In this document: positions 2,967 through 7,347 of the stretch, in pieces
Layout of the letters: each line of letters begins with the position of its first letter
How positions within the stretch are numbered: position 1 is the stretch's first letter
Origin: Acidobacteriota bacterium
GTDB taxonomy: Bacteria; Acidobacteriota; Blastocatellia; Pyrinomonadales; Pyrinomonadaceae
Reading direction: 5' to 3'
NCBI GenBank assembly: GCA_003222945.1
Contig: QHXM01000063.1
Coordinates: 186-64,185, forward strand
Length of the DNA: 64,000 nt
Notes under the pieces: model-generated
What the model saw: only the letters and a program-made list of their open reading frames with translations
Told to the model about the DNA's origin: nothing
The model's database searches: none
Program-made: the position numbers and the translations under genes

Positions 2967-4379
2967 ATGAAGACTGAGCTAGTTGATATTTCTCCGACAC
3001 GCAAGGAGATAAAGATTGAGATCGAAGCGGACGCGGTGCGCAAGGCTTACGACCGCATCAGCGACCAGTATGCAAAGCTTGCGACTGTGCCCGGCTTTCG
3101 CAAAGGCCATACGCCGCGCTCCGTAGTTCGCACGCGCTTCAAAGATAAGATTCGCGGCGATGTCTTGCAAGAGCTTGTGCCGCAGGCTGTGCAGGATGCG
3201 ATTGAGAAGCACAGGTTGGAAGCAATCGGCGAGCCTGAGCTTCATCTGGACAACGCGGAGGGTTTGGCAGATAAGCTGGGCACAGAGCCTATCTCTCTAC
3301 ACGTTCACGTTGAGGTTCTGCCCGAAGTTACATTGGGCGAGTACAAGGGATTGGAAGCCGCGCGTCGCGTGCGCCCTGTGATGGACGAGGATGTTGACAG
3401 AGTAATCGAAGACTTGCGCGAAGCGTCCGCAACGCTTGAGCCTGTAGAGGAGCGCGGCGCTGAAGTTGGCGACATCGTGACCGTAAACTTTCATGGTAAG
3501 TTCGTTGAGACGCCGGACGAAGAGGACATAAACATTGACGACGTTGACGTGGAAATTGGTGGTCCGGGCGTGCAGCAGGAGTTCACGGATAATTTGTTAG
3601 GCATGAAGGCTGACGAAGAGAAGACGTTTACGGTTGATTACCCGTCGGATTTCACTTCGAAGGGTTTGGCTGGAAAGAAAGTTGAGTACACGGCGAAGGT
3701 CGTCGCAGTGCGCCGCAAGGAGTTGCCGGAAGTTGATGATGAATGGGCTAAGAGTTTGGGCGAAGAGTTTGAGTCTCTTGCGAACTTGCGCGAGAAGGTG
3801 CGCGAGGATTTAGAGAAGCGCGCCGCTGTGGAATCAGATAATCGTCTTCGCAGCGAGGTGATGCGTAAACTTGTCGAAGCGCATCCGTTTGAAGTGCCTG
3901 ATACTTTACGCGAGCATCAGGCGAATCATCGTCTGGAATCAGCCGTGCGCGATATGATAGGCCGAGGGATTGACCCGCGCGGGCAGGACATAAATTGGGA
4001 AGGCGTGCGCGACTCTCTCAAACAGCAGGCGGACTTCGACGTGCGCGGTTCGCTTCTTCTTGAGAAGATCGCTGATGCGGAAAATATAGAAGTCACGGAT
4101 GAAGAGATTGACGCAGAGATAAACGAGATGGCGGCGAGTTCGCGTCAGACGCCAGAAGCTTTGCGTGCTGCCTTGACAAAGCAGGGAGGCACTACTAGCA
4201 TCGCCGATAGGTTGCGCAATCGCAAAACGCTCGACCTGATTGTTAACAACGCGCGCGTGACGGACCAGGAGTGGCAGGAAGAAACGGAAGAAGAATCGGA
4301 CGCCGCTCAGGAAAACGCCGCAAGCCCGGAACAAGATGAACAACAGAATTCAGAAGTCAGGAATCAGAATTCAGAATGA
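2967..4379 (+). CDS. tig: trigger factor
   Basis: 470 aa. N-terminal ribosome-binding motif GFRKGHTP, a PPIase-like middle, and position directly upstream of clpP-clpX. It has an acidic C-terminal extension whose last 12 codons lie inside the repeat at 4344-4430. Confidence 0.95.
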   Translation: MKTELVDISPTRKEIKIEIEADAVRKAYDRISDQYAKLATVPGFRKGHTPRSVVRTRFKDKIRGDVLQELVPQAVQDAIEKHRLEAIGEPELHLDNAEGLADKLGTEPISLHVHVEVLPEVTLGEYKGLEAARRVRPVMDEDVDRVIEDLREASATLEPVEERGAEVGDIVTVNFHGKFVETPDEEDINIDDVDVEIGGPGVQQEFTDNLLGMKADEEKTFTVDYPSDFTSKGLAGKKVEYTAKVVAVRRKELPEVDDEWAKSLGEEFESLANLREKVREDLEKRAAVESDNRLRSEVMRKLVEAHPFEVPDTLREHQANHRLESAVRDMIGRGIDPRGQDINWEGVRDSLKQQADFDVRGSLLLEKIADAENIEVTDEEIDAEINEMAASSRQTPEALRAALTKQGGTTSIADRLRNRKTLDLIVNNARVTDQEWQEETEEESDAAQENAASPEQDEQQNSEVRNQNSE

Positions 4380-4430
4380 AAAGCCGAAGTCGGTTTCTCT
4401 TTTCTTCTGAATTCTGGATTCTGGATTCTG
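4344..4430. repeat. CAGAAT-word palindromic element (tig-clpP spacer)
   Basis: CAGAATTCAGAAGTCAGGAATCAGAATTCAGAATGA pairs with TTCTGAATTCTGGATTCTGGATTCTG. Small inner hairpin CCGAAGTCGG. Left arm overlaps the tig stop codon. Confidence 0.7.
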
Positions 4431-4449
4431 CCTTTGAGGAGAAGTTCGT

Positions 4450-5034
4450 ATGGCTCTAGTCCCGATGGTCGTTGAGCAAACGTCGCGTGGAGAGCGCGCG
4501 TTCGATATCTACTCTCGGCTCCTGAAAGACAATCTAATCTTCATAGGCACTCCCATTGACGACATGATTGCGAATCTGATCGTCGCTCAGCTTCTCTTCC
4601 TTGAAGCTGAAGACCCTGAGAAGGACATCTGGCTCTACATCAACAGTCCCGGCGGCTCAATCACTGCTGGCATGGCAATCTACGACACTATGCAGTTCAT
4701 ACGCCCGGACGTTGCAACCATCTGCGTGGGCCAGTGCGCTTCTATGGCTGCGCTTCTGCTGACTGCGGGTGCGAAGGGCAAACGCTTTGCGCTTCCGAAT
4801 TCGCGCATACTTATTCATCAGCCTTCGGGCGGCTCGCAGGGCCAGGCCACAGACATACGCATTCAGGCCGAAGAGATAATAAGAATGCGCGAGTTGACCT
4901 CACAGATTATCGCAAAGCACACAGGCCAAACTTACGATAATGTTGAGCGCGACGTGGAACGTGATAAGATCATGTCAGCCGTGCAGGCCAAAGAGTACGG
5001 TCTGATTGACGAAGTGATTACACACCGTGAATAA
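4450..5034 (+). CDS. clpP: ATP-dependent Clp protease proteolytic subunit
   Basis: 194 aa with [26 protein letters not shown] (active Ser) and LIHQP (His) motifs. Confidence 0.97.
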
Positions 5035-5092
5035 GTTTCAAGTTCCAGGTTTCAAGTGAACGCTTGTCTTGGAACTTGAAACTTGAAACTTC
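5035..5092. repeat. GTTTCAAG-word hairpin (clpP 3' end)
   Basis: GTTTCAAGTTCCAGGTTTCAAG ... CTTGGAACTTGAAACTTGAAAC starts one nt after the clpP stop. Same word family as 13685-13758. Confidence 0.7.
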
Positions 5093-5151
5093 TTAAAGCC
5101 ATGCGCTTCAGAACCGGAACAGAATCGCCGCTGACGCTTTTAACTCGCAGG

Positions 5152-5313
5152 ATGAGACACGTGCTCAGATGCTCTTTCTGCGGTAAGTCGGAGCATGAAG
5201 TTAAAAAGCTAGTGGCCGGACCGCGTGTTTACATTTGCGATAGCTGTGTAGAGATTTGCAATCAGGTCATGGCGGACGCTGACACAACAGCCCCCGCGCC
5301 TTCTCCCAAATAA
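5152..5313 (+). CDS. stand-alone ClpX-type C4 zinc-binding domain protein (53 aa; alternative ATG at 5101 gives 70 aa)
   Basis: [42 protein letters not shown]... aligns gap-free to the N-terminus of the downstream ClpX (26/39 identical by eye, CxxC...CxxC retained). It lacks any AAA+ part. The ORF-track TTG start at 5083 lies inside the hairpin and is rejected. Confidence 0.6.
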
Positions 5314-5358
5314 GACGGAAAATTTTTAGACTTTCAACGAAGTTCCCCAAGACCCATT

Positions 5359-6603
5359 ATGGTAAGACGAACCGATGACACCTTGCGCTGCTCCTTCTGC
5401 GGCAAGTCGCAGAATGAAGTTAAAAAACTCATCGCTGGCCCCACCGTCTATATCTGCAACGAGTGCATAGACATCTGCAACGAGATAATCACGGACGACC
5501 AGCAAGCCGAAAGTGTCGCCACGCGCCCGCCTCTTCCAAAGCCCGGCGAGATAAAAAGTTTTCTTGATGAGTACGTCATCGGACAGGAAGAGACGAAGAA
5601 GCGTCTGGCCGTTGCAGTCTATCAACACTACAAGCGAATTGAGATGGCGCGTCGCAGGACCGATGTTGAGATTCAAAAGTCCAACATCCTGCTCATCGGA
5701 CCAACAGGCACGGGCAAGACGCTCCTCGCACAGACGCTCGCGCGAATGCTCTCAGTCCCCTTCACAATCGTTGACGCGACGACTTTGACCGAAGCTGGCT
5801 ACGTAGGCGAGGACGTTGAGAACATCATCCTGAAACTCTTGCAGGCCGCGAACGGCGATGTCGAGCGCGCTCAGCAGGGCATCATCTACATTGACGAGGT
5901 TGACAAGATTTGCCGCAAGGACGAGAACCCTTCGATCACGCGCGACGTTTCGGGCGAGGGCGTGCAGCAGGCTCTCTTGAAAATTCTGGAAGGCACTGTG
6001 GCAAACGTTCCGCCGCAGGGCGGGCGCAAGCATCCGCATCAGGAGTTCTTCCCCGTTGACACGACCAACATTCTATTCATCTGCGGCGGCGCATTCGTCG
6101 GACTCGAAAAGGTTATCGAAAGACGTATGCGCAACAAGTCTATGGGCTTTCACGCGGACATCAAATCCGGCAGGCATCGTCACGCAGAAGCCTTCGCGCA
6201 GGTGCAACCCGAAGACCTTGTGCGCTATGGGCTGATTCCAGAGTTTGTCGGAAGACTTCCCGTCTGCGGCGTTCTGCACGAACTGGACGAAGGCGCGCTC
6301 ATAAAGATTCTGACCGAGCCGAAGAACGCTCTCGTCAAGCAGTATCAGAAAAAATTCGACTTCGACAACGTGAAACTCAAATTCACGGATGACGCCCTCA
6401 AGTGCGTCGCACGCCAGGCCGTAGAACGCAAAGTAGGCGCTCGCGGCCTTATGATGATTCTAGAAGAGCTACTCTTAGACGCCATGTACACCCTGCCATC
6501 GCAGAAGCGCATCAAGGAGTTCGTCATCACCTCCGAGATGGTCGAACGTCGCCACGCCATTCCGGGCGAAGGCTTGACGGGCATTGACGGCGCTGCTGCC
6601 TAA
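5359..6603 (+). CDS. clpX: ATP-dependent Clp protease ATP-binding subunit ClpX
   Basis: 414 aa with N-terminal C4 zinc finger, Walker A GPTGTGKT, Walker [10 protein letters not shown], and sensor/IGF-loop context. Confidence 0.97.
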
Positions 6604-6660: not shown

Positions 6661-7347
6661 GTGCGACGGTTCACCGTCCACTATAAAATTCTTCTCGCGC
6701 TCACAGTCACACTCATCTTCGTCGCGTGCAGGGATTCTAGCCGAAGCTCAATAAACAATCAGGCTTCACAACCAATAGCAACACCGCAACCGACACCTCT
6801 CATCATTCCTGTCTCCGATGGGTTTGACTATCCCGTTGGCCGAAAGGGTTATGCTACAGAGGCCAAAGATGGCGATGGCTGGTATGTTGCTCAGGATTTC
6901 GGTGAGAACAATCATCTAGGTGAAGATTGGAATGCAGAGTCGGGCGGCGATACGGATTGCGGCTTGCCCGTGTACACAGCATCGAAAGGGATGCTTGTTT
7001 TTGCCGACGAAGCAGGTGTAGGTTGGGGTAAAGTCATTATCATTCGACATCGCTTGCTGGATGGTACAATCGTTGAGACTTTATACGGGCATTTGCAATC
7101 ATTCGCAAAAACTCTTGGAGAGGTTGGGCGGCGAGAAATAATCGGCAATATAGGAAATGCAAACGGAGATTATCCTTGCCATCTTCATTTTGAGTTGAGA
7201 TTCTCGGATTGTGCGGCCTGGGGATTACCTGGGCCTGGGTACAGTAATAATCGAGCGGGCTGGGCTGACCCCTCAGATTTTATTGACGCCCACCGACCAG
7301 CAGCGGTCAATAGTTCTTCCAAAGTGCGCCGAAAAAAGAATCAATGA
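6661..7347 (+). CDS. M23-family (LytM-type) metallopeptidase, probable lipoprotein
   Basis: GTG start. Signal peptide ending LIFVAC (lipobox-like). M23 motifs HLGEDWN (HxxxD) and HLHFEL (HxH). Confidence 0.8.
   Translation: MRRFTVHYKILLALTVTLIFVACRDSSRSSINNQASQPIATPQPTPLIIPVSDGFDYPVGRKGYATEAKDGDGWYVAQDFGENNHLGEDWNAESGGDTDCGLPVYTASKGMLVFADEAGVGWGKVIIIRHRLLDGTIVETLYGHLQSFAKTLGEVGRREIIGNIGNANGDYPCHLHFELRFSDCAAWGLPGPGYSNNRAGWADPSDFIDAHRPAAVNSSSKVRRKKNQ

Follow-up and report, generated by a model that had tools for sequence, protein, structure and literature searches.

A stand-alone ClpX zinc-binding domain gene between clpP and clpX

The 64,000-nucleotide stretch of contig QHXM01000063.1 analysed here (hereafter the window; assembly GCA_003222945.1, a Pyrinomonadaceae member of the Acidobacteriota) carries a small gene that encodes a free-standing copy of ClpX's N-terminal zinc-binding domain (ZBD). 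This mini-gene lies between clpP and clpX, in a cluster that opens with tig. The genes of the cluster and its downstream neighbour are the following:

2967-4379, plus strand: tig, encoding trigger factor, at the head of the tig-clpP-ZBD-clpX cluster; Pfam Trigger_N, FKBP_C and Trigger_C
4450-5034, plus strand: clpP, 194 amino acids (aa); Pfam CLP_protease, E 5.8e-85
5101-5313, plus strand: stand-alone ClpX ZBD gene, 70 aa, 'type A'; stop codon 5311-5313; PF06689, E 2.4e-19
5359-6603, plus strand: clpX, complete (414 aa); Pfam zf-C4_ClpX and AAA_2/AAA/ClpB_D2-small
6661-7347, plus strand: M23 peptidase gene, downstream of clpX

The mini-protein matches the Pfam profile zf-C4_ClpX (PF06689) with 69.4 bits against a cutoff of 27, over profile positions 2-38 of 39, and has no other Pfam match. 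This search had been proposed in a first-pass annotation of the DNA, and together with the coordinates it bears out the claim made there of a stand-alone ClpX ZBD gene between clpP and clpX that has no AAA+ module. The two ClpX equivalog models, TIGR00382 and NF003745, score 49.6 and 48.5 bits on the mini-protein, and their match is restricted to model positions 4-49 of an open reading frame (ORF) that ends at residue 70. Because these scores lie far below the cutoffs of 370.75 and 359, the AAA+ module is absent. In BLASTP, 32 of 62 residues are identical to the neighbouring ClpX (E 4e-22). Within the ungapped core the 26 identities counted by eye stand, but out of 38 residues (68.4%) and not 39. 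All four cysteines are retained, as had been noted, at codons 24, 27, 46 and 49 (nucleotides 5170, 5179, 5236 and 5245); they form the pattern CSFC(x18)CDSC (codons 24-49) and are invariant in 10 of 10 aligned type A sequences. The gap to clpX measures 45 nucleotides (nt), so that the clpX ATG is 46 nt away when counted from the stop codon's final base, which agrees with the distance of 46 nt given earlier.

Only two ZBDs are found in the window, that of the mini-gene and that of clpX itself at 5383-5496 (Pfam zf-C4_ClpX, E 1.3e-19). Since ClpX retains its own invariant ZBD beside the mini-protein, the latter is no stand-in for a lost domain.

Start codon and architecture of the mini-protein

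The ORF has three candidate starts: TTG 5083 (76 aa), ATG 5101 (70 aa) and ATG 5152 (53 aa). The GenBank entry PYS51839.1 ('hypothetical protein DMF68_03015') is the exact 53-aa form starting at ATG 5152. In an alignment of orthologs running from clpP to clpX, conservation starts exactly at ATG 5101, the DNA 5' of it being unrelated between contigs, and the internal ATG 5152 is absent in four of six orthologs. As conservation begins at ATG 5101, the product is a 70-aa protein and the start in GenBank is too short; the record, now a 53-aa 'hypothetical protein', is due for correction to a ClpX-type zinc-finger protein of 70 aa. The coding sequence falls into three parts:

5101-5160, plus strand: N-terminal leader peptide, codons 1-20, specific to type A
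5161-5277, plus strand: ZBD core, codons 21-59, with Cys24, Cys27, Cys46 and Cys49
5278-5310, plus strand: Ala/Pro/Thr-rich C-terminal tail, codons 60-70, weakly constrained (pN/pS 0.63)

The core aligns without gaps to the Escherichia coli ClpX ZBD structures 1OVX and 2DS5-2DS8 (phmmer, E 1.6e-16). An AlphaFold2 (AF2) monomer model built from a 97-sequence alignment gives it two strands and a C-terminal helix, with a predicted local distance difference test (pLDDT) score of 70-77, and leaves residues 1-20 and the tail disordered. Zinc binding and dimerisation of the mini-ZBD are predicted from its sequence. F26 and V56 align with F16 and I46 of E. coli ClpX; among type A orthologs F26 is invariant and position 56 is V or I.

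The leader has a pLDDT below 50 and is predicted to be disordered. It is near-invariant among orthologs, with R2, F3, R4, T7, E8, S9, L11, L13, L14 and R16 invariant, and has a pN/pS (the ratio of the proportions of nonsynonymous and synonymous differences) of 0.21 and a synonymous divergence (dS) of 1.1 over seven loci. As dS in the leader is as high as elsewhere, the constraint acts on the protein and not on the RNA. Its motif L-x-L-L-x-R (PLRLL) is reminiscent of what we take to be the XB core of SspB (ALRVVK/ALRVV), a likeness that serves as a lead only. The tail ending ...P-A-x-S-P-E/K is common to type A proteins and to locus L019, a member of the related type B introduced below.

Orthologs, selection and age of the copy

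A protein search returned 12 ortholog clusters, nine of them 69-72 aa in length; the eleven besides the window's own are 61-94% identical to it. The syntenic counterparts in relatives that the first-pass annotation had named as a check were found: the order tig-clpP-ZBD-clpX is present in all six metagenomic contigs that were traced (L001, L002 and L165-L168), often with lon coming after it. A disrupted ORF would have spoken against the gene; in none of the seven type A loci, relatives included, is the ORF interrupted, and its length does not vary. Nei-Gojobori estimates over these seven loci (the window and the six contigs) gave the following pN/pS values:

mini-gene, whole (pooled): 0.25
mini-gene leader: 0.21
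mini-gene ZBD core: 0.21
mini-gene tail: 0.63
tig: 0.23
clpP: 0.069
clpX: 0.047
ZBD of ClpX: 0 nonsynonymous versus 256 synonymous differences across seven genomes

The purifying selection on the mini-gene is thus comparable to that on tig (0.25 versus 0.23 pooled), and pairwise omega (dN/dS, where dN is the nonsynonymous divergence) is 0.08-0.25 at a dS of 0.35-2.1, with the exception of one near-identical pair. The mini-ZBD evolves much faster than the ZBD of ClpX (dN of 0.13 versus 0). When the mini-ZBD is compared with the ZBD of the adjacent clpX within each genome, the proportion of synonymous differences (pS) is 0.54-0.89, while dN is only 0.11-0.22. With synonymous sites saturated and dN low, the copy is old and has been kept similar by selection, and not by recent gene conversion. 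The decaying partial duplication that the first-pass annotation had set against the gene, for which it had suggested a dN/dS estimate, is rejected on the basis of the pooled pN/pS of 0.25, the omega values and the saturated synonymous divergence from clpX. Taken together, 5101-5313 is, with high confidence, a real gene under selection.

The type A core has a mean identity of 73% (range 63-79%) to the ClpX ZBD of its own lineage; for E. coli ClpX and for other stand-alone ZBDs the mean is 63% in each case. This speaks in favour of descent from the clpX of the same lineage.

Three forms of the gene in the Blastocatellia

A scan of species-representative genomes with the ClpX of the window gave at least 80 Acidobacteriota loci among the matches listed, in each of which clpP, clpX and any extra ZBD were located. 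The absence of type A among these matches is not informative. Most of the loci have a clpP-clpX gap of 9-165 nt that holds no ORF, and no extra ZBD occurs at the Vicinamibacterales, Terriglobia and other non-Blastocatellia loci among the matches listed. A metagenome scan with the type A alignment gave no new type A among the matches listed, which included N-termini of ClpX with some 50% identity, but it did provide six type B loci (L085, L099, L100, L102, L103 and L139). The slot between clpP and clpX is taken by two further forms:

Type B, about 73 aa, beginning MIAKMKARGFRCSFCGRSKGEVANIMAGTPQRMPGVPRQMIGKSAFICDECVKRYYQMV..., in the clpP-clpX slot: eleven loci (L013, L015-L017, L019, L085, L099, L100, L102, L103 and L139)
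Type C, about 145 aa, with two ZBDs, between clpP and clpX: L030:3878-4333, L033:3842-4333 and L034:2929-3369

Both forms score above the Pfam cutoff for PF06689. In type B proteins the beta-hairpin that separates the two Cys pairs carries an insertion, which measures about 14 aa in most members. Type C proteins contain two zf-C4_ClpX stretches (Pfam), which correspond to one canonical and one degenerate ZBD-like module (CSFN.HDR.NPQG.R.F.G..AQICDKC.RAC). A protein search with a type B sequence gave at least 275 clusters; the best 120 of 275 are 70-95 aa long, share 68-89% identity, come from Pyrinomonadaceae/Blastocatellia metagenome-assembled genomes (MAGs) and carry the names 'hypothetical protein' or 'ClpX C4-type zinc finger protein'. 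Over 100 type B representatives measure 70-83 aa, the majority being 72-73 aa long. Across 102 aligned representatives the mean column identity is 78%, with the inserted loop and the N-terminus MIAKMKARGF near-invariant, and type B has a pN/pS of 0.33 and a median pairwise omega of 0.14. Types A and B share 46% identity in the core, and their leaders are unrelated in sequence. Type A is the minor form of a Pyrinomonadaceae/Blastocatellia family of ZBD mini-proteins at the clpP-clpX junction.

In a neighbour-joining tree of Tig, the type A carriers fall into a single clade, within which three non-carriers sit beside L002; the type B carriers are paraphyletic, non-carriers being interspersed with them, and the type C carriers are monophyletic. 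Carriers of A and B are sister groups. One old insertion in the ancestor of a Pyrinomonadaceae subclade, followed by divergence of A and B and several losses, is the likely history, though the 46% core identity and the differing leaders of A and B speak for caution. Types A and B are linked by the gene at L019 (L019:1328-1621): its body is that of type B, its ...APSPE tail resembles that of type A, and nucleotide homology to type A is seen in its 3' end and spacer. The second zinc-ligand Cys is replaced by Tyr (CSFYG) in this otherwise intact ORF. L019 may represent an error in sequencing, a copy under relaxed constraint or an intermediate between A and B.

Expression signals and spacers

The mini-gene is likely co-transcribed with clpP and clpX, judging from its sequence context: no sigma-70-like promoter or intrinsic terminator was found between clpP and clpX, which is weak evidence as only sigma-70 consensus sites were considered, and most ortholog spacers are short and unstructured. 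A GAGGAG Shine-Dalgarno sequence lies 8 nt 5' of clpP. The non-coding features around the gene are:

4344-4430, plus strand: hairpin at the tig 3' end and in the tig-clpP spacer, built from repeats
5032-5085, plus strand: hairpin in the spacer between clpP and the mini-gene, -30.9 kcal/mol, z -6.4, no U-tract
5337-5358, plus strand: conserved clpX leader, acgGAGttccccagacgcct-ATG in relatives and acgaagttccccaagacccatt in the window

The hairpin at 5032-5085 has a counterpart in L165 only (z -6.6); the other five orthologs have spacers of 48-62 nt between clpP and the mini-gene without significant structure. It is a lineage-specific insertion and not a conserved element. For the tig-clpP hairpin, which overlaps the final tig codons, the RNA fold of 4330-4450 has -43 kcal/mol (z -4.7), a stability that none of 200 shuffles reached, and Rfam gave sub-threshold miRNA/CRISPR-repeat noise only. 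The spacer hairpins of the tig-clpP-clpX cluster consist of short imperfect tandem repeats, GAATTCAGAA-like and GTTTCAAG-like, and different repeat hairpins occur at matching places in L165, L005-L007 and L024. This suggests that they are either mobile elements of the repetitive extragenic palindromic (REP) kind or lineage-specific RNA stability elements.

Relatives share the clpX leader motif acgGAGttccccagacgcct whether or not they carry the mini-gene. Since it is kept in relatives that lack the mini-ORF, the translation signals of clpX are independent of the latter. The only Shine-Dalgarno-like GGAG 5' of clpX is located about 15 nt before the ATG, within the conserved acgGAGttcccc (window and L001-L020); this spacing is unusually long, and the window reads GAAG there. 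The offset from the mini-ORF to clpX is 258 nt, and thus in frame, in the window, L165 and L168; L001, L002 and L166 have 257 nt and L167 has 260 nt, both out of frame. A fusion of the mini-ORF to clpX by read-through or frameshifting was rejected, as the frame relative to clpX is not conserved.

Proposed role and alternative explanations

The N-domain of ClpX is the main entry for the adaptors SspB, RssB, CpdR and trigger factor and for several substrates. The isolated ZBD reportedly competes for such ligands in vitro, in work attributed to Wojtyra 2003 and Thibault 2006. In E. coli ClpX, mutation of F16 or I46 abolishes the effect of trigger factor, and the same patch of the ZBD binds SspB, RssB and lambda O (PMC7804408). 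The mechanism preferred here, tentatively and with a confidence that stays somewhat short of even, is that the mini-protein would act as a trans-acting modulator of ZBD-dependent delivery to ClpXP. The free ZBD would fold and dimerise like the ClpX N-domain and retain its hydrophobic ligand patch. In trans, the mini-protein would bind the adaptor tails and substrate tags that usually dock on the ClpX N-domain, so that ZBD-dependent delivery to ClpXP would be limited, buffered or re-routed and ZBD-independent substrates would be unaffected. The conserved leader peptide may provide a second, lineage-specific contact. The part of decoy, anti-adaptor or substrate-holding factor suggested in the first-pass annotation would agree with the retained residues of the hydrophobic patch and with the place of the gene in the operon.

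Several observations weigh against this role as a modulator of delivery. Judged from close relatives without it, the mini-gene is dispensable: close Pyrinomonadaceae, with a ClpX 95-96% identical to that of the window, have a 36-134-nt gap without an ORF. Furthermore, because non-carriers are nested among carriers in the Tig tree, the gene appears to have been lost repeatedly. A decoy present at operon stoichiometry would seem to blunt adaptor-mediated degradation constantly, and hence to be costly, unless it is regulated; in addition, expression of the mini-protein is itself predicted. The AF2 monomer has a moderate mean pLDDT of 64 and gives no sign of the leader docking onto the ZBD patch, and the window's own leader has T instead of R at the XB-like motif position. 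Finally, the loop insertion of most type B members and the changed residues of type C remodel the beta-hairpin beside the ligand patch, and ligand mimicry may therefore not be the function of the whole family.

Other explanations keep the protein but assign it a different task. The mini-ZBD might cap ClpX by pairing with its ZBD in a heterodimer, upsetting the trimer-of-dimers and altering N-domain movement, gating or hexamer behaviour. Its core is 63-79% identical to the cognate ClpX ZBD with most universal ZBD positions kept, it is encoded in the clpP-clpX operon and presumably co-expressed, and partial capping could matter, since fewer ZBD dimers per E. coli hexamer result in more lambda O degradation (PMC7804408). 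However, the N-domains in the ClpX hexamer are at very high local concentration, which favours ClpX-ClpX pairing, and a dN of 0 in the ClpX ZBD against 0.13 in the mini-ZBD is unlike a tight obligate interface, and we regard capping as unlikely. A positive role has also been considered, in which a ZBD dimer displays two N-terminal peptides or captures cargo and enhances degradation as an SspB-like adaptor or tether. A leader that is disordered (AF2) yet has a pN/pS of 0.21 is what one would typically expect of a short linear binding motif, peptides of the XB type bind the ZBD wherever they are placed in a polypeptide (PMC12373786), and type B likewise has a near-invariant N-terminal peptide (MIAKMKARGF). 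Yet this role is rather unlikely: there is no SspB-like fold or cargo domain (PF06689 being the only Pfam match), type A and type B leaders show no kinship in sequence, the arginine of the motif varies, and tblastn with E. coli SspB gave nothing significant in the window. Distinctly improbable is a zinc-ribbon that works independently of ClpX, as a dimerisation, zinc- or redox-sensing module whose operon position is a relic of duplication. ZBDs do occur in unrelated settings, such as the fusion of an HTH_17 domain to a ZBD in P0086 and proteins of about 82 aa without clp linkage, and frequent loss indicates that the gene is not essential; but three divergent forms have stayed at the clpP-clpX junction over long divergence, and a fourth ZBD copy beside lon in L010 points to functional linkage with protease genes.

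Two further explanations make the peptide itself irrelevant. An upstream ORF could tune clpX by coupling or attenuation, for which its place in the same operon, 42-46 nt 5' of clpX, would be suitable. Selection acts on the amino acids, the four Cys included, while synonymous sites are free (dS about 1); moreover, relatives without the ORF have an unchanged clpX leader motif and the frame relative to clpX varies (offsets of 257, 258 and 260 nt), and such tuning is very improbable. A pseudogene, the decaying partial duplicate of the clpX 5' end, would fit the patchy distribution with its repeated losses and the Cys to Tyr change in L019, but it is scarcely credible in the face of intact, constant-length ORFs in seven type A loci and over 100 type B proteins of 70-83 aa, of an omega of 0.08-0.25 at near-saturated dS, and of a protein that has stayed similar despite saturated synonymous divergence from clpX.

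Other free ZBD proteins

Free copies of the domain are also encoded elsewhere. In a Pyrinomonadaceae-related MAG (L010, JALZJL010000280.1), a 120-aa ORF at L010:8145-8507 on the plus strand directly follows lon; it starts with a near-copy of the ClpX ZBD, followed by a tail of about 65 aa that contains CPAC, and there is no ZBD ORF between clpP and clpX at this locus. This ORF gives the impression of a fourth free ZBD beside protease genes, seemingly of more recent origin. Coliphages encode ZBD proteins as well, namely P88 (AIZ95127.1, 110 aa, L171:1309-1641), PhiR41_1 (XSB42465.1, 107 aa, L172:1324-1647) and phage D6. These proteins comprise a helical N-terminal part of about 60 aa and a C-terminal ZBD that is a close mimic of the one in E. 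coli ClpX, without an ATPase; by eye, about 31 of 39 positions of the E. coli ZBD agree with the P88 protein. They are located in early/accessory regions, the PhiR41_1 copy near ea22/eaA, and are annotated as hypothetical or, wrongly, as 'carboxylate-amine ligase'. Such proteins could serve as phage tools against host ClpXP. In P0086 (110 aa) and its cluster members P0126 and P0127, an excisionase-type helix-turn-helix domain (HTH_17) is fused to a C-terminal ClpX ZBD, which may act as a dimerisation module or as a ClpXP link for a DNA-binding protein.

Stand-alone ZBDs of about 82 aa (e.g. P0065) and the 53-aa P0045 (Candidatus Xenobiia), which bear the NCBI name 'ClpX C4-type zinc finger protein', resemble type A in having no ATPase, with a mean core identity of 63% to it. 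The ~82-aa class and type A both have KSE and LVAGP where ClpX has KSQ and LIAGP. The ~82-aa class differs in its C-terminal segment VExTxWRKLxDRVRRLF, in the absence of the N-terminal leader and of ICN, and in not being located beside clpP or clpX. The class is large (P0015-P0100; P0065 at L003:5001-5249), and its C-terminal segment is amphipathic. No conserved neighbourhood was seen in four contexts, two of which are beside genes for extracytoplasmic function (ECF) sigma factors. An origin of type A from this class, suggested by the common KSE and LVAGP, is less likely, since ICN is shared with ClpX and the local ClpX ZBD is closest.

Comparison with known systems

The mini-protein has the same fold signature and Cys4 spacing as the N-terminal ZBD of ClpX (PF06689), with the equivalents of F16 and I46 kept. 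The ClpX ZBD sits on an AAA+ motor, whereas the mini-protein is free and has its own conserved 20-aa N-terminal peptide. It is thus a known domain in an undescribed, operon-embedded, free-standing form: no description of a free, naturally selected copy of the ClpX N-domain was found in the literature, nor was a published study of stand-alone ClpX ZBD proteins, of phage ZBD proteins or of a gene intervening between clpP and clpX. A dedicated NCBIfam model for the mini-protein was not found either, and the PADLOC defence models gave no match to types A, B and C.

The anti-adaptors IraD, IraM and IraP act at ZBD-dependent ClpXP delivery. The regulators at the ClpX N-domain that were found in the literature all bind the domain or an adaptor. 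The XB tail of SspB, RssB and trigger factor act at the same node as is proposed for the mini-protein, namely access to the ClpX N-domain (PMC7804408, PMC12373786). These regulators bind the ZBD or an adaptor, whereas the mini-protein is a copy of the ZBD, without kinship to them in sequence or fold.

A closer parallel in logic comes from mycobacteria, whose ClpC2 is a partial homologue of ClpC1 that exists as a free protein; it binds cyclomarin A, an antibiotic directed at ClpC1, and protects the cell (PMC10030653). In both cases, the ligand-binding region of an unfoldase occurs as a separate small protein beside an intact parent gene. The two differ in fold (ClpC-type versus zinc ribbon) and in the parent ATPase, and the function of ClpC2 is experimental, whereas that of the mini-protein is proposed.

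Significance

The ZBD family is larger and more varied than the mini-gene alone implies, and the function proposed for the latter is plausible. It is conceivable, with more reserve than applies to the modulator role of the mini-protein itself, that free copies of the ClpX N-domain represent a recurrent, undescribed mode of trans regulation of ClpXP and a counterpart of ClpC2, comprising the operon forms, at least three in number, the copy beside lon and the coliphage proteins. Each copy would then act on ZBD ligands, by competing for them, holding them or tethering them, or would cap the N-domains of ClpX. If so, cells and phages would have a simple handle on the substrates that reach the protease, and the coliphage ZBD proteins bring the idea within direct reach of tests in E. 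coli. Over long spans of evolution, hundreds of lineages of soil Acidobacteria have kept the mini-gene family. If the mini-protein is a true modulator of ClpXP, it would constitute a new class of protease regulator and a compact natural tool to block or re-route ZBD-dependent degradation.

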